Assembly (NCBI GenBank): GCA_041497735.1
Contig: JBGQHA010000001.1
Location: forward strand, 1-45,720
Source: Dehalococcoidia bacterium
GTDB lineage: Bacteria; Chloroflexota; Dehalococcoidia; DSTF01; RBG-16-68-14
DNA: 45,720 bases
Direction of reading: 5' to 3'
This document shows positions 1 to 42,284 of the stretch, in pieces; positions within the stretch are counted from its first letter, which is position 1, and the number at the start of each line of letters is the position of its first letter. The notes under the pieces were generated by a model. That model saw nothing but the letters and a program-made list of their open reading frames with translations. It was not told the origin of the DNA and searched no databases. The translations under genes were made by a program, and so were the position numbers.

Positions 1-720
1 CTCGTCGTAGACACCGCCGCCTTCCACAACGTCGATGCCTGCGAGAGCGAGCCGGAGCGCGCGTTCCAGGTGAACGCCGTCGGCGCGATGAACCTTGCTG
101 ATGCCTGCTCCGAGATCGGCGCGGCGCTCATGTTCATCAGCACCGACTACGTCTTCGCCGGCGACCTCGGCCGCGCGTACAGCGAGCAGGATGCGCCGGC
201 GCCCGTCAACGTCTACGGCGCGAGCAAGGTGGCTGGAGAGCAGCTCGCGCGCTCCAGGATCGAGAAGCACTACATCGTGCGCACGTCCGGCCTGTACGGT
301 GAGGCGGGATCGGGCGGAAAGGGCGGCAACTTCGTCCAGCGCATGCTGGAGCTGGGACGCAGCGGCAAAGACCTGCGCGTCGTGGACGACCAGGTGCTCT
401 CGCCGACGTTCACGTACGACCTGGCGCAGCAGCTCCTCGAACTCGCCGAGACGCATCGGTACGGCACGTACCACGTGACGAACGGCGGCTCCTGTTCGTG
501 GTACGAGTTCGCCGCGAAGATCTTCTCGCTCACCGGCACGGACGCCTCGCTCAGCCCGACGACGACGGCGGAGTTCGGCGCGAAGGCGCGCAGACCCCTA
601 TACTCGGTGCTCGAGAACGCTGCGCTGCGTGAAGCCGGGGTGCCACTGCTGCGCGACTGGCAGGAGGCGCTGGCCGATTACCTACATAGAAAAGGCGAGC
701 TGCAACCGAACGAACAGTAA
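1..720 (+). CDS. rmlD: dTDP-4-dehydrorhamnose reductase (RmlD), 5' end cut by the window edge
   Basis: Frame 1 is open from base 1 (LVVDTAAFHNVDACESEPERAFQVNAVGAM...), with no start in the window. STDYVFAGD and YGASKVAGE (SDR YxxxK) motifs and an RmlD-like sequence throughout. Stop at 718-720. Confidence 0.85.
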   Translation, partial: LVVDTAAFHNVDACESEPERAFQVNAVGAMNLADACSEIGAALMFISTDYVFAGDLGRAYSEQDAPAPVNVYGASKVAGEQLARSRIEKHYIVRTSGLYGEAGSGGKGGNFVQRMLELGRSGKDLRVVDDQVLSPTFTYDLAQQLLELAETHRYGTYHVTNGGSCSWYEFAAKIFSLTGTDASLSPTTTAEFGAKARRPLYSVLENAALREAGVPLLRDWQEALADYLHRKGELQPNEQ

Positions 721-733
721 GGAGAGGTAGATC

Positions 734-1198
734 ATGACCACTGATGCGAAAGCCAGGAACACTGTCACTGACGCGCGCGTCTCCGTGCCGCGGCTCTTCG
801 ATGATGACCGCGCCCGCCGCGCCTGCGACGTCTTCGGCTTCACGGGCGACGGCACCGTGGACATGGGCGGCGACGTCAACATCACGTGGGCCTACCCGGG
901 CCGCGTCGTCGCGTGGCACCGGCACCGGAAGCAGACCGACCACTGGTTCGTGATCAAGGGCTACCTCAAAGTGGGCCTGATGGACGACGACAAGCAGGTG
1001 AAATGGGTCTATCTTGGCGAGAACGACCGCCGCGTGCTCAGCATCCCGCCGGGTGTGTGGCATGGCTACATGGTCCTGGGTGACGAGGAAGCCGTGCTGA
1101 TGTACTACATCACGTCAAAGTACGAAGAGAAGAGCCCGGACGAAGAGCGCATGACGCCGGAGGAGTCCGGCGTCGACTGGTCGGTGCCCGTGAAGTAA
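734..1198 (+). CDS. RmlC-like cupin (dTDP-4-dehydrorhamnose 3,5-epimerase-related sugar epimerase/isomerase)
   Basis: AGGAG RBS about 8 nt upstream of the ATG. Cupin core AWHRHRKQTDHWFVIKGYLKVGLMDD ... PPGVWHGY resembles the small RmlC-like family. Lies directly downstream of rmlD. Confidence 0.6.
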   Translation: MTTDAKARNTVTDARVSVPRLFDDDRARRACDVFGFTGDGTVDMGGDVNITWAYPGRVVAWHRHRKQTDHWFVIKGYLKVGLMDDDKQVKWVYLGENDRRVLSIPPGVWHGYMVLGDEEAVLMYYITSKYEEKSPDEERMTPEESGVDWSVPVK

Positions 1199-1211
1199 GG
1201 TATCGGCTGCT

Positions 1212-2534
1212 ATGGGGAAGCGCATTCTCGTTCTCGCGGCGGCGGCCTACGGCCAGCGGATGTCTAGCCCGGGCATCCGCGCGCATCATATGGCACGCGT
1301 ACTCGTCGAGCGAGTGCCGGGCGCGCGAGTGACGCTCGCGGTTCCCGCCGACACCGCGCAAGGTGACACAAGCGGTGCGCCGTGCCGCATTGTGATGTAC
1401 ACCAAGTTCTCGATCATTCGCGAGTTGGCGAACCATGACATCATCATCGCGACGGGCTTTCCGGCATATGCGCTCTTCTTGTTCCCCTGGAAGACCTTCG
1501 TGCTCGACTTTTTCACGATGTATCTCCTGGAGTGGATGGGCGCGACCTTCGATGATCCGTACTACAAGACAGCCCGGCGCGGGGCGTGGCTGTCGCAGGC
1601 TCGGAAGTTCCTGAACATTCAGCTCACGTTTGCCGACTTCGTCCTCGCGGCGAGCGAGCGCCAGCGCGACTCTCACCTGGGTTCGATGATGAGTCTTGGG
1701 CTGGTGAGCCCGCGCGGGCATGCACAGGATCCATCGATGCGTAAACTGATCGGTGTGGCGCCGCATGGGATCCGTCCCGATCCGCTCACTCACACAAAGA
1801 GCGTCCTGAAGGGCCGGTACGCCGGCATCAAGGAGACGGACAGGCTCATCCTCTGGAACGGCGGCATCGTGAGCTGGTACGACCCGGCTACGCTCATTCG
1901 CGCGATGGCGGACATCTGCAAGGAACGGGACGATGTCAAGCTCGTATTCGTCGGATCGTCGTATCCGGGGCTCGGCAGCCTTGGCATGGGCAACCGCTTC
2001 CGGGACGCCGTGGACCTGTCGCGAGAGCTCGGCCTCTACAACCAGAGTATCTTCTTCGATATCGGCTGGGTTGGCTACGAGGAAATGAAGAACTACACGC
2101 TTGAGGCCGACATCAGCGTGTGCACCTACTTTCAAGGACTCGAAACCAACTTCTCCTTGCGCACTCGCTTTCTCGACGTCTTCTGGGGTGAGATCCCGCT
2201 CGTCTGCACGCAGGGTGACGTGCTGGCTGAGCTCGTCGAGGAGCACCGCCTCGGGCTGACCGTTGGCGAAGCCGACGTCGCCGGCGTCGCGGCGGCGATT
2301 CGCAGGCTGCTCGACGACCGGGAGTACTTCGAAGAGTGCAAGCGAAATATTCACGTTGCCAAGCGATGCATGACGTGGGATGTCGCCCTCGATCCGTTGA
2401 TCAGGTTCTGCATCGAAGGCGAGTCTATCGCGAAGCCGAAACGAGAGCGCGTCATGCCCCTCGTCGGGCGCATTGCGGGGCATGAGATTACGAGGCGGGT
2501 GCGGTCCCTCAGAGCTGCGTTCTTGAGATTCTGA
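1212..2534 (+). CDS. GT-B fold glycosyltransferase (GT1/GT4 clan), paralogue 1
   Basis: 440 aa. The C-terminal Rossmann half (ILWNGGIVSWYDPATLIRAMADICKERDDVKLVFVGSSYPG ... EADISVCTYFQGLETNFSLRTRFLDVFWGEIPLVCT) aligns with the next gene. Confidence 0.7.
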   Translation: MGKRILVLAAAAYGQRMSSPGIRAHHMARVLVERVPGARVTLAVPADTAQGDTSGAPCRIVMYTKFSIIRELANHDIIIATGFPAYALFLFPWKTFVLDFFTMYLLEWMGATFDDPYYKTARRGAWLSQARKFLNIQLTFADFVLAASERQRDSHLGSMMSLGLVSPRGHAQDPSMRKLIGVAPHGIRPDPLTHTKSVLKGRYAGIKETDRLILWNGGIVSWYDPATLIRAMADICKERDDVKLVFVGSSYPGLGSLGMGNRFRDAVDLSRELGLYNQSIFFDIGWVGYEEMKNYTLEADISVCTYFQGLETNFSLRTRFLDVFWGEIPLVCTQGDVLAELVEEHRLGLTVGEADVAGVAAAIRRLLDDREYFEECKRNIHVAKRCMTWDVALDPLIRFCIEGESIAKPKRERVMPLVGRIAGHEITRRVRSLRAAFLRF

Positions 2535-3934
2535 TGGTTGGCAAGAACTCCGACATCCTCGTCCTCACCCGCGACCACATCGGCGCGCGGATGGCGAGCC
2601 CGGGCATCCGGATGTTCAACATCGCGCGCGTGCTGGCGAACCAGCTCCCGGATCGCAGCGTGACGCTGGCGGTGCCGGCGGACTCGCAGCTACCGGATGG
2701 CAAGTTGCCGTTCGACGTGGTGCCGTACAAGCACCGGTCCGTCTTGCAGGCGGCGGGCCGCAGCGGCACACTGATCTCGAACTACTTCCCGCCGTATCTC
2801 TATCCTGTGATGGCAAACCGGCGCGTCATCCTCGATCTGTTCAGCCCATTCACCGAGCGACTCGAGGTGGCGCACTCGAAAGGGCGCGGCGCAGAAGCCT
2901 ACTTCGGGTCGTACACGAGAGAGCTCGTTTCCCAGCTACTGCTGACCGACCTCGTGCTCTGCGCTTCGGACCGGCAGCGCGACCTCTATTTCGGGATGCT
3001 GAGCGCGCTTGGCAACATCGAACCACAGGCGTACGACAGGGACCGCTGGCTCTCGGATCTGATCGTCCAGGCGCCGTTCGGAGTGCGCGAGGGCGAACCG
3101 AGGGCGACGCGCCCGGTGCTTCGCGGCGTGTGGCCGGGCATCGACGCCGGGGACACGGTCCTGATTTGGAACGGCGTGATTATCGAATGGTACGATCTCT
3201 TCACGCTGATCCGGGCGATCGCCCGGATCAGCGAAACACGCTCTGACATCAAGCTGTTTTTCTTGGGCACAGAGCATCCGGACAATCCCGGCGTGGCGAA
3301 GCTACAGGGGCTTGGCGGTGGCACGGTTCGCGCAGCCTTACAGCAGTGCGATGACCTGGGGCTGCTTAATCGCTCGGTCTTCTTCAACTTCGACTGGGTG
3401 GACTACGGGGACACGGCCAACTACCTCTGCGAGGCGGACATCGGCGTCTGCACGTACTTCGAGAACGTGGAGACGCGCTTCGCGTTCCGCTCGCGCTACG
3501 CCGACCTGCTGTGGGCCGGGCTGCCTATCATCTGCACGCGGGGAGACGTGTGGGCCGAGATGGTGGAACGCAGGCCGCTCGGCATCGCGGTTGCAGAACG
3601 AGACGAACCGGCGCTCGTCCACGCCATTGCGCGGCTTGCCGATGACCGCGCGTTCGGCCAGCAGTGCAAACAGAACCTCCGCGAAGAACGCGAGCGCTTC
3701 CGATGGGAACGCGTGTTGGAACGCCTAGTCCAGTACTGTCGGGACGAGCCCCAGACGAGGAGCAAGTGGGCGCGATTGCCATCGGTCGCCTCACTTCTGG
3801 CGGCGAACAAGCTGACCGCCCTAGAAGAAGGCGGCCTCGTGCGCGCAGCGCAGCTATACCGCCGCGCGCGAGGCGCGGTGCGAGCTGTCGGCGCCGCGGC
3901 GTTGGGCGGCTCGGCGAAACGGGGCCTTCCTTGA
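2534..3934 (+). CDS. GT-B fold glycosyltransferase, paralogue 2
   Basis: The ATG overlaps the upstream stop (TGATG at 2532-2536). VLIWNGVIIEWYDLFTLIRAIARISETRSDIKLFFLGTEHPDNPG ... EADIGVCTYFENVETRFAFRSRYADLLWAGLPIICT is clearly paralogous to 1212-2534. Confidence 0.7.
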   Translation: MVGKNSDILVLTRDHIGARMASPGIRMFNIARVLANQLPDRSVTLAVPADSQLPDGKLPFDVVPYKHRSVLQAAGRSGTLISNYFPPYLYPVMANRRVILDLFSPFTERLEVAHSKGRGAEAYFGSYTRELVSQLLLTDLVLCASDRQRDLYFGMLSALGNIEPQAYDRDRWLSDLIVQAPFGVREGEPRATRPVLRGVWPGIDAGDTVLIWNGVIIEWYDLFTLIRAIARISETRSDIKLFFLGTEHPDNPGVAKLQGLGGGTVRAALQQCDDLGLLNRSVFFNFDWVDYGDTANYLCEADIGVCTYFENVETRFAFRSRYADLLWAGLPIICTRGDVWAEMVERRPLGIAVAERDEPALVHAIARLADDRAFGQQCKQNLREERERFRWERVLERLVQYCRDEPQTRSKWARLPSVASLLAANKLTALEEGGLVRAAQLYRRARGAVRAVGAAALGGSAKRGLP

Positions 3935-4770
3935 GCCAGCGCTCGCTCGCCCCGGGACGCCCGCTGGCGGACGAACAGCTACGGACCGAAGGGACGCTGG
4001 CGTCTCATGGCGGGTGGGCGCGAGCCTGGGACCTGTTGTTCGCCCTGACGACACGAGAGCTGATGCTGCGGTATCGAGGCACCGTGCTGGGCTACCTCTG
4101 GTGGGTCGCCCGTCCGTTGGTACTTGGTCTCGTCCTCTGGTTCGCGCTGCGCAAGGTGCTCGACGTTCAGGTGCCGCACTACCCGCTGTTCATCATGACC
4201 GGGCTGTTCCCCTGGTTCTGGTTCTCGTCCGCCGTGTCCGAGGCGTCGGGCGTGATGCTCGGCCACTCGACCATGGTAAAGAAGGTCGTCTTCCCGCGAG
4301 CGATCCTGCCGCTCTCTTCTGCCGCCGGCAACGTCGCGCAGTTCATCTTTACGCTCCCGGTGCTGCTGGTATTCCTTGTCGTCGGCCACGTGCACCCGTC
4401 ACCGATGTGGCTCGTTGGGATCCCGTTGCTCATCTTGTTGCAATTCGCGCTGACGGTCGGCATCGGGCTGACGCTGTCCGTGCTTAATGTCTTCTTCCGC
4501 GACATTTCGCCGCTCATCGACGTCAGCATGACCATGCTGTTCTACGGATCAGCGGTGATCTTCCCGCTCGATCGCGTCCCTCACGGCATCAGGCCGTTCC
4601 TCCTGCTCAACCCGCTCACCACGCTGATGGAGGCCTGGCGAACCGTGCTGCTGGATGGACAGCTACCGCACCGTGACATCTTTTCCGCCGTCGGCCTCGC
4701 GGTTGGCGGTCTCCTCGCCGGCGTCACGGTGTTTCGGGCGTTAGAAAGGTATATTGCGGATGCGCTCTGA
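3931..4770 (+). CDS. wzm: ABC-2 type polysaccharide export permease (Wzm/TagG family)
   Basis: The ORF track runs from 3664, but that part overlaps the upstream GT. An in-frame TTG at 3931 overlaps the upstream TGA (TTGA). ELMLRYRGTVLGYLWWVARPL signature followed by about 6 hydrophobic helices. About 279 aa, typical for Wzm. The start is uncertain. Confidence 0.8.
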   Translation: MSQRSLAPGRPLADEQLRTEGTLASHGGWARAWDLLFALTTRELMLRYRGTVLGYLWWVARPLVLGLVLWFALRKVLDVQVPHYPLFIMTGLFPWFWFSSAVSEASGVMLGHSTMVKKVVFPRAILPLSSAAGNVAQFIFTLPVLLVFLVVGHVHPSPMWLVGIPLLILLQFALTVGIGLTLSVLNVFFRDISPLIDVSMTMLFYGSAVIFPLDRVPHGIRPFLLLNPLTTLMEAWRTVLLDGQLPHRDIFSAVGLAVGGLLAGVTVFRALERYIADAL

Positions 4771-5635
4771 CGATATTGCGCTGTCCGTGGACAACGTCTC
4801 GAAGCGCTTTCTCGTCGCGCAGATGCGTCCCTGGCGCGCGAGCGAGGCACTCCTACACCCTATCTCCTTCACGCGCGAAGTGCTCTTTGGCGAGCCGTTC
4901 TGGGCGCTCCATGACATTACGGTGAACGTCAGGAGCGGCGAGTTTCTCGGCATCATCGGGCAGAACGGGTCCGGCAAGAGCACGCTCCTGCGCGTCATGG
5001 CCGGCCTTTCGCCGCCAACGACGGGTCGCGTCACAGCGCGGGGCCGCGTCGCCTCCATCCTGGACCTGGGCGCGGGGTTTCACCCGCTGGCCACCGGCCG
5101 CGAGAATGCGTTCATCAACGGGCTGCTGCTGGGGCTCTCGAAGGAAGAGATCCGCGCGAAGCTCCCCGAGATCCTGCGCTTCGCCGAGCTGGAGGAGTTC
5201 GCCGACCGGCCAATGCGCACGTATTCGAGCGGGATGACGCTCAGGCTCTCATTCGCCGTAGCGGTGCACGTGCGGCCGGACATCTTCCTGATCGATGAGG
5301 TGCTCGCCGTCGGCGACGCGGACTTCCAGGAAAAGTGCTTCTCTCACTTCGAGTCGCTCAAGCGCGAAGGCGTAACGATCGTGTTCGTGTCGCACGACCT
5401 TGGCAGCGTCGAGCGGTTTTCCGACCGTGTGCTGCTGCTTGAGGCTGGACGCATCAGCGCGAGCGGCGACGCCCGCGACATCGTCAGTAAGTACTTGCAG
5501 GACCTGGCAGAACGATCACCGGCCGCGCGAAGACAGCTGGAGCAGGCGTTGCGCCGCGCACTGGCGGCTTGGCGAGAGAATGACCGGATCGAAAGCGAAG
5601 ACAGCAGCTCGGTCGGCGCGGAGGAGCGATCGTAG
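4760..5635 (+). CDS. wzt: ABC transporter ATP-binding protein (Wzt/TagH family), no obvious C-terminal carbohydrate-binding module
   Basis: Walker A GQNGSGKST, signature YSSGMTLRL, Walker B IFLIDEVLAVGD. The ATG at 4760 overlaps the wzm 3' end (track start is a TTG at 4754). Only about 50 aa follow the NBD. Confidence 0.9.
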   Translation: MRSDDIALSVDNVSKRFLVAQMRPWRASEALLHPISFTREVLFGEPFWALHDITVNVRSGEFLGIIGQNGSGKSTLLRVMAGLSPPTTGRVTARGRVASILDLGAGFHPLATGRENAFINGLLLGLSKEEIRAKLPEILRFAELEEFADRPMRTYSSGMTLRLSFAVAVHVRPDIFLIDEVLAVGDADFQEKCFSHFESLKREGVTIVFVSHDLGSVERFSDRVLLLEAGRISASGDARDIVSKYLQDLAERSPAARRQLEQALRRALAAWRENDRIESEDSSSVGAEERS

Positions 5636-6232
5636 ATGGACGCGCTACGCGGCCCGTGCCCGCCCGTGAAGGTTGACCTTGGCTGCGGCAGAAGGAAGGT
5701 GCCGGGGTCGATCGGCGTCGACATCGTTCCTGCGCCGGCCGTGAATGTCGTCGCCGACTTTCGACAGGGGCTGCCGTTCAGAGACGACTCCATCGATGCC
5801 GTGTATGCCTACCACCTGCTGGAGCACATGGATGACTTCATGGGCTTCATGGAGGAGATCTGGCGCATCTGCACGGACGGCGCGCACGTCTACATCAAGG
5901 TGCCGCACGCCGCTTCGCCGTTCGTGACGTGGAAGGACCCGACGCACAAGCGCGGGCTCTTCATCGCCACATTCGCGTACTTCGACGTCACGTACTTCGA
6001 CGGCTCGGCGTTTTCGTATTATTCGAAGGCCAAGTTCCGTATCGAGAAAGCGCGGCTCAACTTCTCGATCGATAACGGGCAGAGCTTCCCCTTCCTGCGC
6101 CGCACGGCGAACCAGCTCGTCCACGTCTTCGCGAACAGGAGCCGCACGACGCAGTACCTCTGCGAGCGCTTCTGGGGTCCGCTTGTGGGCATCGAGGAAG
6201 CGGTGCTTCTCCTGCGCGCGCTCAAGGCCTAG
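5636..6232 (+). CDS. Class I SAM-dependent methyltransferase (Methyltransf_11-like)
   Basis: The ATG directly follows the wzt stop (TAGATG). Motif I VDLGCGRRK; later DSIDAVYAYHLLEHMDD. Confidence 0.8.
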   Translation: MDALRGPCPPVKVDLGCGRRKVPGSIGVDIVPAPAVNVVADFRQGLPFRDDSIDAVYAYHLLEHMDDFMGFMEEIWRICTDGAHVYIKVPHAASPFVTWKDPTHKRGLFIATFAYFDVTYFDGSAFSYYSKAKFRIEKARLNFSIDNGQSFPFLRRTANQLVHVFANRSRTTQYLCERFWGPLVGIEEAVLLLRALKA

Positions 6233-6245
6233 CGCGCGAACGCTT

Positions 6246-7625: not shown

Positions 7626-7718
7626 GTTCCGGTCGATCTCTGCGTCATTCTACGCGACCGAGAAAGCTGCCACCAAGCCCCTTCGAGCGGCGGGCCGCGT
7701 GTGGTGAGCCTGACGTCC

Positions 7719-10507: not shown

Positions 10508-10586
10508 CTTCGGGCTCCTGAGGCCGTCTCGTAGCATCAGGGTAGAAGCCGCGTTATGTTAGTGACGCCCCGCTGGAGCGCAGACC

Positions 10587-13282: not shown

Positions 13283-13298
13283 CCTGGCCTGCTGGCCT

Positions 13299-13331
13299 GC
13301 GGGCGCCAAGTGCTGCACTGTGGGCGCCCGC
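13299..13331 (+). terminator. GC-rich hairpin downstream of 11813-13282 (terminator-like, weak U tract)
   Basis: GCGGGCGCC (13299-13307) pairs with GGCGCCCGC (13323-13331) around a 15-nt loop. It starts 17 nt after the stop codon. Confidence 0.35.
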
Positions 13332-13350
13332 GCGCGTATTCTCCAGGCCA

Positions 13351-13361
13351 TGCTATATAAT
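13351..13361 (+). promoter_or_regulatory. Near-consensus extended -10 (TGCTATATAAT), placed for a leaderless or near-leaderless transcript of 13370-14722
   Basis: TATAAT ends at 13361 and the ATG is at 13370 (8-nt gap). There is no SD sequence between them. Confidence 0.5.
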
Positions 13362-13369
13362 GGCGCCCA

Positions 13370-14722: not shown

Positions 14723-14764
14723 TTAGGAATCGGAGTCGCCCAGCCGCAGAGGGGTTAGTCGAGC

Positions 14765-15682: not shown

Positions 15683-15709
15683 GCGCAGACCGGCTAGACT
15701 GACGGAAGC

Positions 15710-25426: not shown

Positions 25427-25428
25427 CG

Positions 25429-34592: not shown

Positions 34593-34610
34593 TCCTATCA
34601 TGAGCGATCG

Positions 34611-35777: not shown

Positions 35778-35888
35778 ATGCCCGACGCACCGCTCGCGAG
35801 CGTGATCATCCTCGGCTACTGGGGCCGCGCGTTCGTCGATGGCTGCCTCTCCTCGGTGCTCGACCAGGAGCAAGGAGACGTCTTGTGA
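35778..35888 (+). pseudogene. 36-codon remnant of a GT2 glycosyltransferase N-terminus
   Basis: Hand translation: MPDAPLASVIILGYWGRAFVDGCLSSVLDQEQGDVL*. This is the first beta-alpha unit of a WbbL-like GT2 (compare VYIVVVNWNGWQHTVRCLKSLQ at 14765). It starts at TAGATG and ends in GTGA, which overlaps the next start. Confidence 0.5.
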
Positions 35889-36763
35889 TCTCCGTCGTCA
35901 TCCCAACCAAGAACGAAGCTGAGCGCATAGGACCCTGCCTGGAGGCGATTGCTCGCCAGCAACTGGATGATCACGACGTTCAGGTCATAGTGATCGATTC
36001 CGGATCGGAAGACGACACGGTGCAAATCGCCGAGGCGCACAGCGCGACCGTGCATCGCATTACTGCCGAGGAGTTCGGGCACGGCCGCACGCGCAATCTT
36101 GGCGCATGCCTCTCGAATGGTGAGGCGATCGTATTCTTGAATGCGGACGCCGAGCCGGCCGGTGAGCGCTGGCTGTCCGCGCTGATCACGCCGTTGAACA
36201 AGGATAAGGTCGTAGCCACTTATTCACGCCAGGTCGCCCGTCCCGACGCCAACCCTTGGGAGGCCAGCCTGCTTGGTCATCTCTATCCGGCCACGCCAGC
36301 CACCTGGTCGCTGGCGCACGCGCCTAAGGGCCTTCGCGTGGTCTTCAGCACCGTCGCGGGCGCCGTCACCCGACAGGCCTGGGAGCAGCACCCCTTTGAC
36401 CACACGATCGACATCGCCGAGGACCAGCAATGGGCAGAGGAGACACTGCGCTCTGGGTACTCAATCTGCTATACACCGGACTCGGTGGTTGTCCACTCGC
36501 ACAACTACGGTTTGCGCGACAGCTGGATCCGTTACCGTCGGCTGGGGCGCGTCCGGGCTACACGAGTCTCCACCGTGGCTGGCCCCGGACTCGGGCTCTC
36601 CTCCTCTCTGGCCTTAGCGCGTTTAGCTGCCAGCGATGTCCTTGGCGAGCTGCGCCGCGGCCATGTAATGAGCTCTCTCCACGCCGGCGCCGCCAACGGG
36701 TCACGCATACTTGGCTACACAGCAGGCATAGCCGAAGGGCGCCTTCGCGTCCGAAAGAAGTGA
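35885..36763 (+). CDS. GT2 family glycosyltransferase
   Basis: GTG at 35885 with AGGAG 7 nt upstream; the track ORF from 35111 is a shadow extension over the previous gene. ISVVIPTKNEAERIGPCLEAIARQ ... VIVIDSGSEDDT ... VFLNADAEP. Confidence 0.8.
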   Translation: MISVVIPTKNEAERIGPCLEAIARQQLDDHDVQVIVIDSGSEDDTVQIAEAHSATVHRITAEEFGHGRTRNLGACLSNGEAIVFLNADAEPAGERWLSALITPLNKDKVVATYSRQVARPDANPWEASLLGHLYPATPATWSLAHAPKGLRVVFSTVAGAVTRQAWEQHPFDHTIDIAEDQQWAEETLRSGYSICYTPDSVVVHSHNYGLRDSWIRYRRLGRVRATRVSTVAGPGLGLSSSLALARLAASDVLGELRRGHVMSSLHAGAANGSRILGYTAGIAEGRLRVRKK

Positions 36764-36837
36764 GCGGATAAGACAGGTGAGGCGCCGGTGCCTGCGCGGC
36801 TGTGGACGCGCAGCGCGGCGACGAGGTGAGGGCGGAC

Positions 36838-37818
36838 ATGGCTGAGTGGTCGTTCCTCGTTCCGCCCGGCATCAGCGTCACGCTGCGCGCCTCGAAGCGG
36901 CCGGCGCTGCTCGCCCGCTGCCTCGGCAACGAGGTCGCGCCGCACGTTGTACCCTCCCTCCTCTTGGAGTTGGGGACTGGCGAGCAGACGGATCAGGACG
37001 CGCAAGGCCGTTACAAGGGCGTCCCGTGGCGCTGCGGCGTGACGGCGCGACCCGATGGCCGGCTCGCGCTCTCCTGGCGCAGCCCGCTCCTGCGCGAGTA
37101 TCTCGCGCTGCACATCGCGCTGCTGCCGGCGCTCCGGCGCTTGCTCCTCCAGCGGGACGTCGCGCTGATCACGGGCGCGGCGTTCGCATCCGGCGGCGAT
37201 GCCACGGTGCTGGCCGGCGAGACCGGCTCGGGCAAGACGGCGCTGCTGCTGGCGGCGCTCGGGTCCGGCGCGCGTCTCGTAGGCGATGAGTACATCGGCG
37301 TTTCGGCGACAGGTGTTGTGACGCCCGTGCTGCGCGTCATCGCTTTACGGAGCGCGGCGCTCGGCGCTGTCCCTCAGCTCGGGCAACGTTTGTCTGCGCG
37401 CCGGCGGCTCGAGTTGCGGACAGCGACGACGGCAAGGCTGTTGACCGGCAGGCGTCTCGACCCGCTGGTACACGTTTCGCCGGATGAGCTCGGCATCGAG
37501 GGCGGTGCAACCGGCAGTGCGCTGTCACGGGTCGTCTGGCTCGAACGCGGCGATCGATCGGAACAGCGCAACGAAACCAGGCGCGTAGAGGACGTGATCG
37601 AGGCCCTCGCGCGCGCCGCTGCGCGGCACGACGACGTCTATAGCGTGCCCGCCGCGTTGCGAAGCGACGAGTCTGCCGCCGCGCGCTGGCGCGACGTGCT
37701 CGCGTCTGGCCTGCGCAATGTGCGCTGCCAGCGGCTCGCGCTTCCCGCCGGCCCGCTGCCGGCCGACATGCTGCGCCAGCTCATCGACGCTGAGCCCGTC
37801 GCGGAGCACACAGCGTGA
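36838..37818 (+). CDS. HprK-related P-loop kinase-like protein (HPr kinase C-terminal domain fold)
   Basis: LITGAAFASGGDATVLAGETGSGKTALLLAALGSGARLVGDEYIGV matches the HprK C-domain pattern (GxSGxGKS/T ... G..L..D). ATG 36838 behind GAGGG is chosen; the track start is a GTG at 36802. Confidence 0.65.
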   Translation: MAEWSFLVPPGISVTLRASKRPALLARCLGNEVAPHVVPSLLLELGTGEQTDQDAQGRYKGVPWRCGVTARPDGRLALSWRSPLLREYLALHIALLPALRRLLLQRDVALITGAAFASGGDATVLAGETGSGKTALLLAALGSGARLVGDEYIGVSATGVVTPVLRVIALRSAALGAVPQLGQRLSARRRLELRTATTARLLTGRRLDPLVHVSPDELGIEGGATGSALSRVVWLERGDRSEQRNETRRVEDVIEALARAAARHDDVYSVPAALRSDESAAARWRDVLASGLRNVRCQRLALPAGPLPADMLRQLIDAEPVAEHTA

Positions 37819-38453
37819 CCGAGACCTACGGCGCGAAGCGGCACTACCAGCGCCAGGAGATCGCTGCAGCGTATGATGACGCGCGGTTTCGCGGTCTGCG
37901 CGGCCGGTTCGTGAACCTACTCGAGCGGCGGCTCCTGATGCGCGCGATCGCCGGTCTGCCACACGGTGCGCTTGTGCTCGACCTGCCGACCGGCACGGGA
38001 CGGATGGCGCGCTGGCTCACGGAGGCCGGCTACCGCGTTGTCGGCACGGACATCTCGCTCCCCATGCTCGGTCGGGCGCGCGCGCTCTCGACCCAAGCGG
38101 CGCTCGTGCGCGGCGAAGGAGAGCGGCTGCCGTTCGCGGACAAGAGCGTCGATGCCGCTGTCTGCTTCCGGCTGCTGTCGCACCTGCCACGCGAGGCGCG
38201 CATTGCCGTGCTGCGCGAGATGGCCCGTGTCGCGCGAGAACGTGTCGTGGCCGTCTACCAACCGCATCGCGTGGCGGTCTGGTGGCTCGTGTACGGCCTG
38301 CTGCTGCGAAAGCCGGTGCCGCGCTACTACGTCTCCGCGGCAGATCTCGAGCAGGAGTTTGCGGAGAGCGGACTGCGTCCGGTTCGGAGCCACGCGCTGC
38401 TGCGAGGCCTGTTTATGGAGCGGGCGTACGTGCTGGCGCCCTCGCGTCGCTAG
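37815..38453 (+). CDS. Class I SAM-dependent methyltransferase (Methyltransf_11)
   Basis: The GTG overlaps the kinase stop (GTGA at 37815-37818). VLDLPTGTGRMARWL ... GTDISLPMLGRAR ... SVDAAVCFRLLSHL. Confidence 0.85.
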   Translation: MTETYGAKRHYQRQEIAAAYDDARFRGLRGRFVNLLERRLLMRAIAGLPHGALVLDLPTGTGRMARWLTEAGYRVVGTDISLPMLGRARALSTQAALVRGEGERLPFADKSVDAAVCFRLLSHLPREARIAVLREMARVARERVVAVYQPHRVAVWWLVYGLLLRKPVPRYYVSAADLEQEFAESGLRPVRSHALLRGLFMERAYVLAPSRR

Positions 38454-38642
38454 TACGGGGTCACGTTCATCTGCATGGGCTGTGACTGACCGGGCGGGAT
38501 GGCAGAGAGCGTGAGTCCTGCGATTGGTACATCAGTGTCGAGCTTCTGGACGATCTCGACTTTGTGCAGCCCCGCTGTGAGTGAGAACGTTGCTTCCAGT
38601 TGGTCCGGCCCCGAAAGCGGCGTCCGTTCCGACGCCACCTGC
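38425..38642. repeat. Diverged direct repeat R1, copy a (3' end of the methyltransferase gene plus a PA14 fragment)
   Basis: Aligns by eye with 39499-39717. Example: GCGTACGTGCTGGCGCC...GCTAGTACGGGGTCACGTTCATCTGCATGG against GCGTATGTGCTGGCGCC...GCTAGTACGGCGTCACGTTCATCTGCATGG. Long shared runs include GGTACATCAGTGTCGAGCTTCTG and GGCCCCGAAAGCGGCGTC. Confidence 0.8.
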
Positions 38643-38650: not shown

Positions 38651-38681
38651 CCGGTCCTCCTGTGGTTGCAGCCTGCGCAGG

Positions 38682-39353
38682 TTACTGCTTGCTGAAGGCC
38701 AGGACGGGATGCAGCTCGATGCCGTTCGGCGCGACGCCGGCCTGGCCGTGGAGGAGGTCGAAGAAGCCGACGCCGGTGACGGTGACGATGCCGGAGATCT
38801 CCTGGAACTCGCCTCTAGGCGGAAGGCCAAAGGTGGCGATAAGTGTGGCGCGCGCATCGCGCATCTCCTGGGCATGGGGTGCGCCGGCGATCTCGGGACA
38901 GTTTTGGGCATCGGGAAACTCAGTGATCATGGTCACGGCGGGATTACTCGGCTCGGCGATGATGAGATGAATGTCGCGGTCGTCCTCTTGCTTGAACTCT
39001 ATGGCCTGCGCCGTAACGGAGTAAACCGTCAGCTCGATGGGCGCGTTGCGTGACTGTTCGGGCAGAGCCTGAGGGGCCGGCATGGAGCGCAACTCGTCGA
39101 CGCTAGCCGGGGCGGGCGCGAAGCTGATCAGGCCGGCGTCGTTATCCGTCAGGGTCTTGACCGGCCAGCGTTCCTCACCGCACGCTGGCTGCAGATCGGA
39201 GCCCGGCGCCACTGTCGCCGAGGTGAGAGTCCGGCTCGGAGACTGGGTGGGCTTCGCGGACTTGCCGTTGCCGCAGGCCACGACGAAGAGAGCGGCGCAC
39301 GCCACGAGCAGCATCGCGCCTGAACGGGCTAGGCGAGTCTCCTCCATGCGCAC
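38682..39353 (-). CDS. Secreted lipoprotein of unknown function
   Basis: Signal peptide with lipobox (MLLVACAALFVVAC|GNG). Conserved-looking core ERWPVKTLTD ... DRDIHLIIAEP ... VTGVGFFDLLHGQAGVAPNGIELHPVLAF. GTG 39353 lies 9 nt after an extended -10; an alternative ATG lies at 39347. Confidence 0.7.
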   Translation of the reverse strand: MRMEETRLARSGAMLLVACAALFVVACGNGKSAKPTQSPSRTLTSATVAPGSDLQPACGEERWPVKTLTDNDAGLISFAPAPASVDELRSMPAPQALPEQSRNAPIELTVYSVTAQAIEFKQEDDRDIHLIIAEPSNPAVTMITEFPDAQNCPEIAGAPHAQEMRDARATLIATFGLPPRGEFQEISGIVTVTGVGFFDLLHGQAGVAPNGIELHPVLAFSKQ

Positions 39354-39362
39354 GTAACCGGA

Positions 39363-39371
39363 GTTATAGCA
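39363..39371 (-). promoter_or_regulatory. Extended -10 element TGCTATAAC for the lipoprotein gene (near-leaderless)
   Basis: Reverse complement of GTTATAGCA at 39363-39371. The GTG start at 39353 lies 9 nt after the hexamer. Confidence 0.45.
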
Positions 39372-39498
39372 GATCCGTCAAGAGAGCGACCCCGGTCGTG
39401 TCATTCACAGGTACATCGTAGTCACTGCTAGATCGAAGATGACTGCACACCATGCCGGTGTGCGTCACAGCCTGCCGCGCGGCATCTGCAGCAATCGC

Positions 39499-39717
39499 GC
39501 GTATGTGCTGGCGCCCGTACGGCGCTAGTACGGCGTCACGTTCATCTGCATGGACTTCCCCTGGCCCGGCGCGAACGCCGAGAGCTCTATTCCCGCGAGT
39601 GGTACATCAGTGTCGAGCTTCTGCACCAGCTCGAGCGTGTGGGGCCCCGCTGTGAGTGAAACCGTGGCCCCCAGTTGGCCCGGCCCCGAAAGCGGCGTCT
39701 GTTCTGACGCCACCTGC
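39499..39717. repeat. Diverged direct repeat R1, copy b (last about 10 codons of a methyltransferase plus the intact 3' end of the 919-aa gene)
   Basis: See copy a. Includes the relic reading frame AYVLAPVRR*, matching AYVLAPSRR* at the end of 37815-38453. Confidence 0.8.
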
Positions 39718-42284
39718 GCGCCGTCGACCAGGAGCGTCACGGTGCCGGCCGGGAAGTCTGCGCGCAGCGTGTAGTCACCCGGTTGATCGACGTGCCAGAC
39801 GGTGCGCCAGCGCTCCTCCGTCACGATCGGCTCCGATGACGTCGTGCGCGCAGCCGCCGTCAGCGGCGCGGTTGAGACGAAGTGCGGCTCGAAATCAAAA
39901 CGCTGGGTGATCTGCTGCTGCGGACCGCCCGGCAGCCCGAGCGAGCGCTGCTGCACCCAGCCGGCGATCGATGACATCGGGAAGAGATCTTGTGCCAAGA
40001 CGGGGCGGTCTCGGTCATCGGGCGATGTCCACACGAGGCGAACGCTGCCGCCTGCGTGTTGCTTTTCGAGCACGATGTCGACCTGATGCCATCCGGCGAC
40101 GAGATCGATCACTTGGTCCCGTTGCTGCCCCGGTCGCGTGTCATAGACGATTCGGTTGTCAATGCTAATGACCAAAGGATCGTCGGTCTGCGCATGGAGG
40201 CTCGCCGAACTGGACGTGCCCGAGTAGTAGACAAGCCCCTGCCACTGCACCATGAATGGTGGGAGAAGCGGCAAGCCCGCCTGGTCCCACGAGAGGTCGT
40301 TCACCTGATCGACGCGACTGGGTTCTGGCCCAGCGTTGAAGGCCGTGTAATTTGCGAGCAGGCCTGTCGGGCTCAGGTCATTCGCGCTTGCGAAGTTGTA
40401 CTCGACATACTCGTACCCCTGCTTCGTCCCGCCGCCGCGCCGGCTGGGCTCGCCGAGCGACGGGTACGCCTGACGCAGGTGCGCAATGGTGTCATCGATC
40501 TTCCCAAGCGGATCTGCGACCACGAGCGTGACCGGCCCCGGCGGTATGCCGTGTAGCGGCAAGGCCTCCTCCGCTGCGGGCACGGCTTCGCCGGCCAGGT
40601 CGTGGCAGACCCAGACGAAGTCGCCCCAGGCGCGCGTCTGCGCGTCGAAGCTGTCACGACGCTGCGCGAAGCCATCCAGCCCCCCGTCGCCGCTGTACGC
40701 GACGGTGTAGTTGGCGTTCGGACGCCCCTGCAGGTCGTGGCAGACCGAGTAGATCATCGCCCTCTCGCCGCCGTAGCTCTGGGCAACGACGCTCGACGGC
40801 GCCACCTGCCGGAAGAGCATGTCGGCGTTCCACCAGAACGCGAACGCCGCGCCGGCCACGAGCAACGCGCCGAACGCCCTCGCGCCGCGTTGCGTGAAAC
40901 GCCGGAGCACGAGGCGACGCGCGTCGTCCAGGAGAAACGCGATGAGCGCGATGAGCACCGGCACGAGCGTGATGAACTTCCACGGCCCGAAGTCCTCCAG
41001 CAGCAAGGCTCCCGCGCCGATGCTGACGAGAACCCAGCCCGTAAACAGCGCGCGGAAGCTGCGGAACGCAAACACGACGCCGGCCACGAGGCCCGCCAGC
41101 GCCAGCCAGCCCGTCAATGGATCGAGCAGGTCCTTGCCCGGGATGTCGCGCGGCGGCGACGTGGGGTACTCGTTCGGGCCGACGGGGAGGAAGATCTGCG
41201 CCTCCCACTTGAGTTGCGTCCGCCACTTGCTGGCGATTCGATCGCCGGCGCGGCCGCCCTCCTGCCGGTGCACGGAGGTCAGGTAGAGGTCATAGCCCTT
41301 GTGTGTGCCGACGATCAGTGGCACGAGCACGACCGCCGTTGCCATCAGCGCGATGATGAGCGGCTGCCACGCGACGCGTGCCAGCGCGCGCGCGCGCGCC
41401 CAGGCAGCGCCAACGGAGATCGGCGCTCGCAGGAGCACTTCGCGCGCGGCGGCCGCGCCGAGAAAGAGCGCGCCGACGATCGGCACGGCCTTGAACGGCT
41501 CGTATTCGTATGACAGCAGCCCCGCCAGCACGCCGGCGGCGAGCAACCACAGGGGGTTCTTCGTCTTGAGCCCGCGCACAAGCACAAGCGCGAACAGCAC
41601 GGCGTAGATCGTGCCTTCGGAAGCCTGGCGCGCGCGCAGCGACGGCCACCAGGCCGCTGCGTAGAGCGCCAGGCCGAACAGCGCGACGGGCACGCTCACG
41701 AGCTCGCGGAGCAGGAAGTAGAACGCGATCAGCGTGATGATGCTCATCACGACGAAGAAGAAACGCAGGCCGAGTGTGTTCTCGCCGAAGACGGCGAAGC
41801 CCGCCGCGCTGCCCCAGCGCGTGATCAGGAAGTTGAGCGGCCGCATGCCCTGCAGGGCGCGATAGGCGACGCCGCCGTTGATCGCCTCCTCGCAGCAGAG
41901 GCCGTCCGACGGCGGCAGCGAGGTCTGATAGCGATAGACGCGCATGAACACGCCGAAGGCGAAGATGCCCGCGAAGAAGAGGACCTCGACCCAGTGGGCG
42001 CGCCACATCTCGGCCAGCGCGCCTGCGCGCCAGTGCGGGCGCGCTGGCTGGTAACTGAGCGCCGCGAAGACAAGCGCCAGCAGCGCCAGGCCCAGCCAGG
42101 GCAGCGAGGCATCGAAGTTGTCCAGGACGAGGGTCGTGCGCCGGGGACTGTCGTTGAGGATGCGCGCGCCGTTGTAGGCGAAGCCGGCCGCCGCCAGCAG
42201 CGCGACCGCCTGCACATGCGTTCGGGCCGGACGCCAGGCAAAGAATCGAGGGCCAGCGCCGTTCGCAGGCGGGCGATCGCTCAA
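39525..42284 (-). CDS. GT-C-like polytopic membrane glycosyltransferase fused to two C-terminal PA14-like beta-sandwich domains
   Basis: TTG start (LSDRPPANG...). The N-terminal roughly 560 aa hold many TM helices, with first-loop motif DGLCCEEAINGGVAYRALQG. PA14-like 1: FMVQWQGLVYYSGTSSSASLHAQTDDPLVISIDNRIVYD...LVAGWHQVDIVLEKQHAGGSVRLVW. PA14-like 2: GDYTLRADFPAGTVTLLVDGAQV...LTAGPHTLELV. Confidence 0.7.
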   Translation of the reverse strand: MSDRPPANGAGPRFFAWRPARTHVQAVALLAAAGFAYNGARILNDSPRRTTLVLDNFDASLPWLGLALLALVFAALSYQPARPHWRAGALAEMWRAHWVEVLFFAGIFAFGVFMRVYRYQTSLPPSDGLCCEEAINGGVAYRALQGMRPLNFLITRWGSAAGFAVFGENTLGLRFFFVVMSIITLIAFYFLLRELVSVPVALFGLALYAAAWWPSLRARQASEGTIYAVLFALVLVRGLKTKNPLWLLAAGVLAGLLSYEYEPFKAVPIVGALFLGAAAAREVLLRAPISVGAAWARARALARVAWQPLIIALMATAVVLVPLIVGTHKGYDLYLTSVHRQEGGRAGDRIASKWRTQLKWEAQIFLPVGPNEYPTSPPRDIPGKDLLDPLTGWLALAGLVAGVVFAFRSFRALFTGWVLVSIGAGALLLEDFGPWKFITLVPVLIALIAFLLDDARRLVLRRFTQRGARAFGALLVAGAAFAFWWNADMLFRQVAPSSVVAQSYGGERAMIYSVCHDLQGRPNANYTVAYSGDGGLDGFAQRRDSFDAQTRAWGDFVWVCHDLAGEAVPAAEEALPLHGIPPGPVTLVVADPLGKIDDTIAHLRQAYPSLGEPSRRGGGTKQGYEYVEYNFASANDLSPTGLLANYTAFNAGPEPSRVDQVNDLSWDQAGLPLLPPFMVQWQGLVYYSGTSSSASLHAQTDDPLVISIDNRIVYDTRPGQQRDQVIDLVAGWHQVDIVLEKQHAGGSVRLVWTSPDDRDRPVLAQDLFPMSSIAGWVQQRSLGLPGGPQQQITQRFDFEPHFVSTAPLTAAARTTSSEPIVTEERWRTVWHVDQPGDYTLRADFPAGTVTLLVDGAQVASEQTPLSGPGQLGATVSLTAGPHTLELVQKLDTDVPLAGIELSAFAPGQGKSMQMNVTPY

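Follow-up and report, generated by a model that had tools for sequence, protein, structure and literature searches.

How would a member of the Chloroflexota, a phylum abundant in soils, sediments and oceans of whose envelope construction almost nothing is known to us, build and vary a complex surface glycan? We approach this question through JBGQHA010000001.1, a whole metagenome contig of 45,720 bp (GC about 65%) from an uncultured bacterium of the Dehalococcoidia, which is called the window here and is filled almost completely by a multi-operon envelope-glycan gene cluster of at least 43 kb. The answer that we favor, with a probability of roughly 0.6, is that the cluster makes glycan in the cytoplasm, exports it by two routes, finishes it on the outer face of the membrane with glycosyltransferases of the GT-C superfamily, and varies it through the exchange of gene cassettes. 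The principle of assembly in two stages is well supported, and the gene families, folds, operon structure, conservation, and cassette exchange described below were observed directly.

Genes were called from GC3 bias and checked against independent gene calls in metagenome-assembled genomes (MAGs), with which their boundaries agree, and they were assigned to families with Pfam and NCBIfam. Near-identical fragments of the window occur in two NCBI MAGs and several JGI metagenomes. The relatives used for comparison are a close relative (L008), a 75% relative on a 197-kb contig (L007 and L036) and a 56% relative on an 87-kb contig (L033 and L037), both seen through 10-kb views of which L036 and L037 stop at the acyltransferase, and further L038, L009, L025, L026, L027, L032, L034, and L035. 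L008 is an uncultured Dehalococcoidia MAG whose DNA is 89-93% identical to the window across most of 9.8-35.9 kb, and it is the only one of 185,579 species-representative genomes with a relative of the 766-aa protein encoded at 23126-25426. An actinobacterial source, to which the GC content and the mixture of WbbL-, GT87-, and CofD-like genes had first pointed, was rejected on this ground.

The outer-face stage depends on six polytopic membrane proteins, each with 6-12 hydropathy peaks:

11813-13282, plus strand: GT-C candidate of 489 aa, PMT_2/TMTC-like group, without a direct Pfam match, in the variable cassette
13370-14722, plus strand: GT87-family GT-C of 450 aa (PF09594, 44 bits, cutoff 25), in the variable cassette, absent from L008
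21228-23126, minus strand: predicted GT-C (PMT_2, 26.3 bits), gene 6 of the central operon
23126-25426, minus strand: predicted GT-C of 766 aa (PMT_2, 35.5 bits), gene 5 of the central operon
32475-34592, plus strand: predicted GT-C of 705 aa with an AftA/STT3-like fold and a nearly invariant FDDW motif (DUF6541 below cutoff)
39525-42284, minus strand: large predicted GT-C of 919 aa, with a PMT_2-type membrane domain (28.6 bits) and a C-terminal region of about 430 aa that includes a PA14 domain

Four of the six pass a Pfam threshold, one in GT87 and three in PMT_2 (cutoff 26.1 bits), and their orthologues in the relatives carry the same matches. For 32475-34592, 22 homologues yielded an AlphaFold2 model (pLDDT 81.7, pTM 0.86) whose top 17 Foldseek matches in the PDB are all GT-C enzymes, with AftA first (8if8, E 7.6e-8), followed by STT3, DPY19, AglB, and PglB; the likeness to AftA is at the level of the fold, at 15-16% identity. 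In its FDDW motif, which a long loop carries beyond predicted transmembrane (TM) helix 5, residues D189 and W191 are invariant in the 22 homologues, and a literature search found no papers on DUF6541. For 11813-13282, a k-mer search found seven homologues, and the top 11 Foldseek matches of the resulting model are again all GT-C enzymes (STT3, PglB, AglB, and ArnT, with E from 2e-3). An exhaustive profile search enlarged this family to 20,675 representative clusters at E ≤ 1e-10, and its distant members, frequently fusions with TPR repeats, score 34-37 bits for PMT_2, above the threshold; through these intermediate homologues, 11813-13282 joins PMT_2. Single-sequence searches of the PDB with 11813-13282, 32475-34592, and 39525-42284 returned nothing useful, as did a profile search with the 21228/23126 family, and the 39525 family returned only the carbohydrate-binding PA14 domain (residues 641-765; 6qdi, E 5.9e-5), which fits a role in handling glycan outside the cytoplasm. 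A comparison of the 11813 and 21228/23126 families with hhalign gave no relationship (probability 2.8%), and at that sensitivity they appear to be separate GT-C lineages.

An earlier note on this DNA had proposed that these proteins are GT-C enzymes and not transporters, and this has held: the assignment is carried by Pfam for four of them, by the fold for 32475-34592, and by intermediate homologues for 11813-13282, so that all six have support as predicted GT-C enzymes. The four acidic motifs that it had pointed out are found in the proteins to which it assigned them, each following a TM helix: DDFIYL at residue 52 of 11813-13282, QDESAI at residues 116 and 122 of the adjacent pair at 21228-25426, and CEEAING at residue 131 of 39525-42284. 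Among 11813-type proteins, NDWFxxDDFxYLR is conserved directly after TM1, and QDESAI and CEEAING resemble the "DE" signature of ArnT/PMT_2. A simple hydropathy and charge count places the motif loop opposite the K/R-rich loops, that is, outside, in 11813-13282, 21228-23126, 23126-25426, and 32475-34592; in 13370-14722 the motif lies in the first loop after TM1, outside by the same logic. For 39525-42284 the outward orientation is predicted only if an extra weak N-terminal TM helix is counted.

Two of these genes belong to an operon of ten minus-strand genes that runs from 29775 to 16486 with gaps of -8 to +19 nt (taking 19240 as the start of the GT4 gene at 17972). Its other members are:

28726-29775, minus strand, gene 1: polyprenyl-P-sugar synthase-like GT2 (PF00535 and two C-terminal TM helices)
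27482-28729, minus strand, gene 2: GT4 (Pfam)
26378-27469, minus strand, gene 3: GT4 (Pfam)
25429-26385, minus strand, gene 4: methyltransferase (Pfam)
20399-21208, minus strand, gene 7: methyltransferase (Pfam)
19237-20391, minus strand, gene 8: GT4 (Pfam)
17972-19240, minus strand, gene 9: GT4 (Pfam)
16486-17958, minus strand, gene 10 and last: MOP/Wzx flippase (Polysacc_synt_3, 76 bits; 13 hydropathy peaks)

This gene order is kept in L008, L036, L037, and L038. To the right of the operon, between 30088 and 43328, lie the remaining core and accessory genes:

30088-31359, plus strand: NDP-sugar dehydrogenase (TIGR03026, 348 bits; nearest models are UDP-ManNAc dehydrogenases)
31372-32391, plus strand: GlmR/YvcK-type UDP-sugar-binding protein (TIGR01826, 307 bits, cutoff 196; Pfam label CofD)
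34611-35777, plus strand: second polyprenyl-P-sugar synthase-like GT2, 388 aa (PF00535 and PF26629, GT2_TM_C; four C-terminal TM helices)
35778-35888, plus strand: 36-codon gene remnant, the stump of an ancestral 338-aa GT2
35885-36763, plus strand: replacement GT2, different from the ancestral one
36802-37818, plus strand: HprK-like P-loop protein (Walker A GETGSGKT at residue 139; HprK-related kinase A, 28 bits, below threshold)
37815-38453, plus strand: methyltransferase (Methyltransf_25, 68 bits), which with the P-loop gene forms a variable tailoring slot
38682-39353, minus strand: lipoprotein-like open reading frame (ORF) of 223 aa with a signal sequence and lipobox-like VVAC, absent from L007 and L033
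42501-43328, minus strand: accessory methyltransferase (Methyltransf_25, 80 bits), between the large GT-C and housekeeping genes, absent from L007 and L033

The two GT2 proteins with C-terminal TM helices look like membrane-anchored polyprenyl-phosphate sugar synthases. Both match solved DPMS (5mlz) and ArnC (9bhc, 8vxh, and 9hwj) at E 1e-13 to 1e-15 (best 1.7e-15), and also the models for AglJ, PpgS, Dol-P-hexose transferase, and ArnC. The protein of the central operon matches solved DPMS, ArnC, and GtrB (5ekp); 34611-35777 scores 164 bits for AglJ and 100 bits for Dol-P-hexose transferase, and matches ArnC and DPMS 5mlz (E 1.8e-14). With a synthase of this type, a Wzx/MOP flippase, and GT-C enzymes whose outward orientation is predicted only, the window holds the components of a multicomponent extracytoplasmic glycosylation system, and the membership of the GT-C, DPMS-like GT2, ABC-2, and MOP proteins in their groups appears at the superfamily or fold level. 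The position of Wzx as the last gene of an operon with four GT4 genes and a polyprenyl-P-sugar synthase fits the flipping of an oligosaccharide linked to a lipid monophosphate better than the flipping of single sugars in the manner of GacK.

The same proteins bear on the question of the acceptor. One view is that the product is a membrane-anchored lipoglycan of the lipomannan/lipoarabinomannan (LM/LAM) type, in which the GT4 enzymes would glycosylate a membrane lipid that is then flipped, and the GT87, PMT_2, and AftA-like proteins would elongate and branch it from polyprenyl-P-sugars. The GT87 family match, AftA as best fold match, and weak NCBIfam similarities of the GT4 proteins to MshA, GlcNAc-phosphatidylglycerol synthase, and monoglucosyl-DAG synthase all point that way, as do the LPG_synthase_TM genes in the variable cassette of L036 and beside a homologue in L034. 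Nevertheless, we consider the lipoglycan improbable: the window has no PimA/PimB equivalog, no inositol or decaprenyl-P-arabinose genes, and no AftA_N/AftA_C or Emb Pfam matches, the similarities are all at the fold or superfamily level with 15-16% identity, and Wzm/Wzt together with rmlD (see below) suggest a polyprenyl-PP-linked polymer as well.

A protein, for example an S-layer protein, could also be the main acceptor in place of a wall polysaccharide, with the PMT_2-type and STT3/AftA-like GT-C enzymes acting as protein O-glycosyltransferases or oligosaccharyltransferases on polyprenyl-P-linked donors, as in archaeal Agl or S-layer glycan (slg) clusters. In Gram-positive slg clusters, rml genes are found together with Wzm/Wzt and terminal O-methylation. 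Archaeal AglJ is the best NCBIfam match of both membrane GT2 proteins (130 and 164 bits), although neither score comes near the equivalog cutoff of 325. The name of PMT_2 derives from protein mannosyltransferases, and 32475-34592 matches the folds of STT3, AglB, and PglB, but its top match, AftA, is a polysaccharide arabinosyltransferase, and GT87 enzymes act on glycolipids and lipoglycans. Cultivated Dehalococcoidia are monoderms with a cytoplasmic membrane and an S-layer; peptidoglycan is found in basal orders and many members lack it (PMC10284905), a wall architecture unlike that of streptococci. That some of them possess peptidoglycan and S-layers is a recent finding (PMC10284905). The window, however, contains neither a Wzy_C/PglL-type O-oligosaccharyltransferase nor an S-layer gene, and six GT-C enzymes with a hypervariable cassette look more like a means of decorating a polymer. 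On these grounds a protein acceptor seems doubtful to us.

On the reading that we prefer, one of the two export routes is the Wzx protein and the other is encoded in the left arm of the cluster, which is given here together with the borders of the variable cassette:

1-720, plus strand: rmlD, dTDP-4-dehydrorhamnose reductase, 5' end cut (PF04321, 261 bits; TIGR01214, 275 bits, above the equivalog cutoff of 224)
734-1198, plus strand: small cupin of 154 aa (Cupin_2 and dTDP_sugar_isom barely above cutoffs)
1212-2534 and 2534-3934, plus strand: two tandem GT4s (Glycos_transf_1, Glyco_trans_1_4), upstream of the ABC exporter
3931-4770, plus strand: Wzm, ABC-2 permease (PF01061, 54 bits; KpsM/galactan Wzm-like, below equivalog cutoffs)
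4754-5635, plus strand: Wzt, ATPase of 293 aa (PF00005, 75 bits; TagH and galactan-Wzt models 175-193 bits, below equivalog cutoffs)
5636-6232, plus strand: methyltransferase (Methyltransf_11), starting one base past the wzt stop with no gap
6246-7625, minus strand: methyltransferase-plus-tail protein of 459 aa (Methyltransf_11/23 at residues 15-127)
7719-8996, minus strand: radical SAM/SPASM enzyme (PF04055, PF13186; CNLRCPYC at residue 83)
9230-10507 and 10587-11816, plus strand: two acyltransferase-3 membrane proteins, paralogues (PF01757, 94 and 104 bits)
14765-15682, plus strand: soluble GT2 (PF00535, 78 bits), conserved right border of the cassette
15710-16489, plus strand: TylF-like methyltransferase, adjoining the soluble GT2

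The ABC-2 permease and its cognate ATPase, encoded among glycosyltransferases, have the setting of a Wzm/Wzt-type glycan exporter; Wzt, with its 293 aa, has no C-terminal carbohydrate-binding domain. The methyltransferase at 5636-6232 has a 74% identical copy beside wzm-wzt in L009. The two GT4 proteins upstream are paralogues (37% identical) without an NCBIfam name. The cupin scores 26 bits for TIGR01221, the rmlC equivalog (cutoff 156), and 32 bits for WbuC-type cupins (cutoff 42); it seems closer to the latter than to canonical RmlC and is possibly an NDP-sugar epimerase or isomerase. Copies of it with 80-84% identity lie beside 11813-type genes in L035 and beside radical SAM genes in L027, and in L035 the 80% identical copy directly adjoins a triplet of 11813-type genes, which suggests that this GT-C subfamily and the sugar product of the cupin are functionally linked. 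Such tandem triplets occur at L009 3-4911 and L035 511-5063. Neither rmlA nor rmlB was detected in the window by Pfam or NCBIfam.

The closest solved relative of the radical SAM/SPASM enzyme is BtrN (E 2.4e-7), with a weaker similarity to cytosylglucuronate decarboxylase. Its homologues adjoin wzm/wzt and WbbL-like GT2 genes in at least five metagenome loci that otherwise differ (L009, L025, L026, L027, and L032), with two copies in L027, and a literature search found no publication tying such enzymes to Wzm/Wzt loci or ABC-exported glycans. Beyond its methyltransferase domain, the 6246-7625 protein has about 330 aa without a family (a lenient Pfam scan of this tail gave nothing significant) and then a basic, heptad-like C-terminal tail. 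Its position beside wzm/wzt is reminiscent of WbdD-type chain-terminating methyltransferases, a likeness limited by the absence of a carbohydrate-binding domain from Wzt and of this protein from L009.

It should be mentioned how the inventory in the earlier note compares with these lists. Nearly every assignment proved right at the coordinates given, as judged by Pfam, NCBIfam, and the MAG gene calls: rmlD, the ABC-2 exporter, the radical SAM/SPASM enzyme, the two acyltransferase-3 proteins, the MOP/Wzx-type flippase, the two GT2 proteins with C-terminal TM helices and DPMS/ArnC structure matches, the NDP-sugar dehydrogenase, and the P-loop protein. Others need adjustment. The "RmlC-like cupin" is a cupin but, by its score, not the RmlC equivalog. 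The "WbbL-type GT2" is a GT2, yet its label is not established: the top NCBIfam match of the soluble GT2, "rhamnosyltransferase" TIGR01556, reaches 66 bits against a cutoff of 200, and its solved relatives are generic GT2 proteins with a weak match to GlfT2. Only six of the seven methyltransferases counted in 1-42284 lie there, the seventh being at 42501-43328, and the eight further cytoplasmic transferases are in fact seven, namely six GT4 proteins and the GT2 at 35885-36763. The lipoprotein-like ORF, the 36-codon remnant, and the GlmR/YvcK-type gene had been overlooked.

This last gene stands in the core of the locus, between the dehydrogenase gene and a GT-C gene; the usual context of yvcK is rapZ-yvcK-whiA, unlike the arrangement here. 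An F420-type CofD/FbiA was rejected as an identity (F420 CofD 29 bits against 257, TIGR01826 307 against 196). The dehydrogenase and the GlmR-like gene are kept as a pair in L007, L008, and L033 (the latter gene at L007 8892-9920 and L033 8899-9864). Proteins of the GlmR/YvcK type bind UDP-GlcNAc and regulate GlmS (PMC7525490), and GlmR of Listeria is an accessory uridyltransferase (PMC10128056); by analogy, the conserved copy beside the dehydrogenase may feed or gauge a UDP-HexNAc(A) pool. The HprK-like P-loop gene lies 4.4 kb downstream in the same operon, echoing the YvcJ/YvcK pairing, and the arrangement also echoes the "GAK system" models (TIGR04357, 117 bits; TIGR04352, 28 bits). The possibility that the P-loop protein is a disguised sulfotransferase, as L033 has one in the same slot, was discarded because there is no similarity. 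Lenient Pfam scans of this protein, of the C-terminal domains of the GT-C proteins, and of the lipoprotein-like ORF gave nothing significant.

In the relatives, the core of the locus is kept at roughly 50-90% protein identity (L007/L036, L008, L033/L037, and L038), in the order: soluble GT2, methyltransferase; Wzx, GT4, GT4, (methyltransferase), GT-C, GT-C, (methyltransferase), GT4, GT4, membrane GT2; dehydrogenase, GlmR-like, AftA-like GT-C, membrane GT2, GT2, (tailoring slot), large GT-C; glyoxalase, SDR, where semicolons mark a change of strand or of transcription unit. The large GT-C is kept beside glyoxalase-SDR in L007 and L033. The blocks are linked in relatives, as had been expected, as far as their contigs reach. 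Of the four outcomes that the earlier note named as refuting it, three were checked (the families of the polytopic proteins, the side of the acidic motifs, and the linkage in relatives), and none of these checks went against it. Outside this core, a cassette at 10.4-14.8 kb differs in every genome. It is bordered on the left by the first acyltransferase (9230-10507), present in L008, L009, L036, and L037 and 46% identical to its paralogue in the window, and on the right by the soluble GT2, which is 66-90% identical in L008, L036, and L037. The contents of the cassette are:

Window: second acyltransferase, 11813-type GT-C, GT87
L008: a single divergent 11813-type gene
L036: LPG_synthase_TM, 11813-type gene, methyltransferase, epimerase, dehydrogenase, GT2, NUDIX
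L037: unknown protein, PMT_2 protein, arylsulfotransferase, acyltransferase

Against L008, which is otherwise 89-93% identical, alignment breaks at 10447-14776, 15697-16391, and 23538-26386; the GT-C at 23126-25426 is only 48% identical there, and the methyltransferases at 25429 and 15710 are absent. The tailoring slot holds the P-loop and methyltransferase genes in the window and L007, and a sulfotransferase in L033. The 56% relative therefore carries two such genes, the sulfotransferase of this slot (L033 14244-15083) and the arylsulfotransferase of the variable cassette (L037 15122-16885), from which it seems probable that some members of the clade sulfate the glycan where the organism of the window methylates it.

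Scars of recombination are also found elsewhere. DNA homology to L007, L008, and L033 ends at exactly 35869 in all three, and the 36-codon remnant at 35778-35888 matches the N-terminus of the L007 GT2 at 81% identity, the latter being a 338-aa protein that is intact in L007, L008, and L033; with the different GT2 that fills the gap (region 35870-36843), the remnant marks a clean gene replacement. Direct repeats of 246 nt (38397-38642 and 39472-39717, 80% identical) flank the lipoprotein-like ORF, and repeats at 42176-42236 and 43597-43657 (93% identical; flanking repeats 61-185 nt) flank the methyltransferase at 42501-43328. The repeats match single-copy junctions in L007, which indicates that the insertion of each accessory gene duplicated its junction. 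Tandem duplication gave rise to three further pairs, of GT4, acyltransferase, and GT-C genes. In other words, extracytoplasmic and tailoring genes are swapped as cassettes between close relatives, so that the surface structure would vary while the core machinery is kept.

With regard to the extent of the locus, its left end is missing, because the window is the complete contig and begins inside rmlD; its right end is placed at about 43.3 kb by the methyltransferase at 42501-43328. Glyoxalase, SDR, and DinB genes follow at the right end of the contig, past the locus. The longest ORFs of SDR (44172-45062) and DinB (44899-45615) share 164 nt; DinB probably starts downstream of 44899, because the domain begins at residue 75. 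An additional repeat (43458-43591 and 44918-45051) copies the 3' end of the SDR gene. Scans of the window with Rfam and for tRNAs found no RNA genes.

Do the left arm and the core serve one product? The locus could be a glycan island with two or more independent pathways that do not converge: an ABC-exported polymer from the left arm (rmlD, two GT4s, Wzm/Wzt, methyltransferases, and radical SAM) and a Wzx/GT-C glycoconjugate from the core. The arms are separate transcription units on both strands; yet they are contiguous in the window, where no unrelated genes intervene. The core, which extends from the GT2 at 14765 as far as the large GT-C at 42284, is conserved as a unit at a fixed site beside glyoxalase-SDR, wzm/wzt is not within reach in the L036 and L037 views, and radical SAM, wzm/wzt, and GT2 genes recur without core genes in distant loci (L025, L026, L027, and L032). 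In contrast, L009 links wzm-wzt-methyltransferase, a radical SAM gene, three 11813-type genes, and the first acyltransferase, so that 11813-type GT-C genes stand beside wzm/wzt there, and this acyltransferase, which adjoins the ABC/radical SAM side in L009, stands next to the core in L008, L036, and L037. Moreover, the known loci with both an ABC exporter and Wzx (gac and the cwps locus of L. lactis) do converge. We regard separate pathways as unlikely, though by no means negligible. All three alternatives considered here keep the principle of two-stage assembly; what separates them is the acceptor and whether the arms converge.

The following scheme sets out the pathway that we propose; the identities of the sugars, the order of the steps, the convergence on one polymer, and the acceptor are what we infer. 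On the cytoplasmic face, soluble GT4 and GT2 enzymes would build glycans on polyprenyl carriers from NDP-sugars, probably including dTDP-rhamnose (rmlD) and a uronic acid (NDP-sugar dehydrogenase), with the GlmR-like protein perhaps supplying or gauging a UDP-sugar, and the Wzm/Wzt ABC exporter would carry one product out. In the central operon, the DPMS/ArnC/GtrB-like GT2 would prime polyprenyl monophosphate with a sugar, the four GT4 enzymes would extend the primer, methyltransferases would modify it, Wzx would flip the lipid-linked oligosaccharide, and the adjacent GT-C pair would polymerize or transfer it. Such priming by a GT2 would explain why this operon has no initiating phosphoglycosyltransferase. 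The second DPMS-like GT2 (34611-35777) may make a single-sugar polyprenyl-P donor for the other GT-C enzymes. On the outer face, the six GT-C enzymes, one with a lectin-like PA14 domain, would transfer or polymerize lipid-linked units onto the growing polymer, which the acyltransferase-3 proteins would O-acylate.

Several points weigh against this reading. Two of the PMT_2 scores are barely above the threshold, the model of 11813-13282 is of low confidence (pLDDT 62), the topology prediction is crude, and the orientation of the motif in 39525-42284 is ambiguous. All sequences are from MAGs or metagenomes. In the 75% and 56% relatives, the 10-kb views stop short of the place where wzm/wzt would be expected, and the linkage of wzm/wzt to the core is direct only in the window, being drawn in relatives through a chain from the L009 acyltransferase to the cores of L008, L036, and L037. 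That the ABC-exported product is the acceptor of the GT-C enzymes, and that the routes converge on one polymer, are steps of interpretation. A rhamnan backbone is not established; rhamnose depends on rmlD alone, the "rhamnosyltransferase" match of the GT2 is far below its cutoff, and NCBIfam gives the GT4 proteins no assignment. There is no GtrA-type flippase, as no GtrA-type ORF fits any intergenic gap of the window, and no small membrane activator of the GacJ/WpsB type in the window, whose sole small ORF (35778-35888) is the GT2 remnant. Finally, neither the window nor about 60 kb of the relatives' context contains an initiating phosphoglycosyltransferase, LCP ligase, Wzy, or Wzz; for the window, the family scans bear out what had been noticed from the sequence (no WecA/WbaP-type initiator, Wzy, Wzz, or LCP ligase). 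In lactococci and streptococci, the initiator and LCP ligase genes map outside the glycan locus.

Among known systems, the closest functional match would be the complex multicomponent system of lactococci, followed by gac and the mycobacterial arabinogalactan (AG) and LAM pathways. In L. lactis, WpsA/B prime C55-P-GlcNAc, WpsC-F extend it, the Wzx protein WpsG flips it, and the GT-C enzymes WpsI and WpsJ polymerize the chain and attach it to an ABC-exported rhamnan, whose initiator (GacO/GbsO) is named apart from the cluster genes (PMC9574508). The cwps locus (WpsA-J and RgpA-F, PMC9574508) shares with the window an ABC-exported chain and a second chain encoded together, the latter primed on polyprenyl monophosphate by a membrane GT2 and served by several cytoplasmic glycosyltransferases, Wzx, and two GT-C enzymes; an initiating phosphoglycosyltransferase and LCP ligase encoded elsewhere; and a conserved region beside a strain-variable one. 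The differences are the other phylum and the absence of equivalog-level orthology, of a GacJ/WpsB-type activator, and of a WpsH-like co-polymerase. The window has, instead, six GT-C enzymes, two lipid-P-sugar synthases, GT4 rather than mostly GT2 elongators, dense O-methylation genes, a radical SAM enzyme, and a GlmR-like gene, and its rhamnan backbone is unproven.

A gac-like architecture had been suggested for the locus, and the logic of its components (synthase, flippase, GT-C, and ABC exporter) is indeed found, but neither GacK-type flipping of single sugars nor gac as the best match is upheld. The gacA-L locus of S. pyogenes also joins rml gene(s), an ABC exporter, a GT2 lipid-P-sugar synthase, a Wzx-type flippase, and a GT-C; however, GacK is thought to flip single C55-P-GlcNAc, whereas Wzx of the window is in an operon with four GT4 genes, and gac has one GT-C against six here and a GacH-type glycerol-phosphate transferase that the window lacks. 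No protein of the window has an equivalog-level NCBIfam match to Gac, Rgp, or Wps proteins (the match to streptococcal PgfS, for instance, reaches 43 bits where the cutoff is 500).

The similarities to the AftA fold and the GT87 family make mycobacterial AG/LAM an equally close functional analogue. The AG and LM/LAM pathways (WbbL, Wzm-Wzt, AftA-D, Emb, GT87 PimE/Mpt, and Ppm1) likewise include a cytoplasmic polymer, ABC export, and multiple GT-C enzymes that draw on polyprenyl-P-sugars; 32475-34592 has its best fold match in AftA, and the window has one GT87 and a GT2 of the WbbL/GlfT1-like group. On the other hand, 32475-34592 has no AftA Pfam matches, the window contains no decaprenyl-P-arabinose pathway, Emb, AftA_N/C domains, or phosphatidylinositol mannoside genes, the similarity is only at the fold or superfamily level, and Chloroflexota have no mycolate outer layer. 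The Gtr-type systems (GtrA/GtrB/GtrC; CsbB/YfhO; CsdAB/CflA) also diversify a surface polymer, cassette-like, with a GtrB/ArnC-like GT2 and variable GT-C enzymes, but they use a GtrA flippase and are phage or accessory modules, whereas the window's system lies inside the main biosynthetic locus. A literature search found no characterized locus of this composition, although large idiosyncratic glycan clusters are common.

A bolder proposal, which we hold to be rather improbable, is that the locus encodes the major secondary envelope polymer of peptidoglycan- or S-layer-bearing Dehalococcoidia, and that the GlmR and HprK-like proteins (the P-loop gene is found in the window and L007) and the BtrN-like radical SAM enzyme have dedicated, undescribed roles in it. 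In that case it may be the Chloroflexota counterpart of arabinogalactan or of rhamnose-containing cell wall polysaccharide (Rha-CWPS), built outside the membrane with six GT-C enzymes from two distinct GT-C lineages; possible roles would be a private supply or checkpoint of UDP-HexNAc(A) and radical oxidation or epimerization of a sugar, and the 10.4-14.8 kb cassette may drive antigenic or phage-receptor variation at the strain level.

To our knowledge, building inside and finishing outside is a strategy known in lactococci, streptococci, and mycobacteria and undescribed in the Chloroflexota. As a prediction from MAG sequence, the advance is incremental, not conceptual. It also offers leads on single genes, since the contexts suggest functions for two under-studied GT-C subfamilies, the GlmR-like gene, and the radical SAM enzyme. 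If the reading that we favor is right, finishing on the outer face by GT-C enzymes would extend beyond the Firmicutes and Actinobacteria to a third monoderm phylum, the recombination cassette and tailoring slots would be natural candidates for a source of phage-receptor diversity, and the conserved gene set would be the first concrete blueprint for the assembly and variation of a complex envelope glycan in the Dehalococcoidia.

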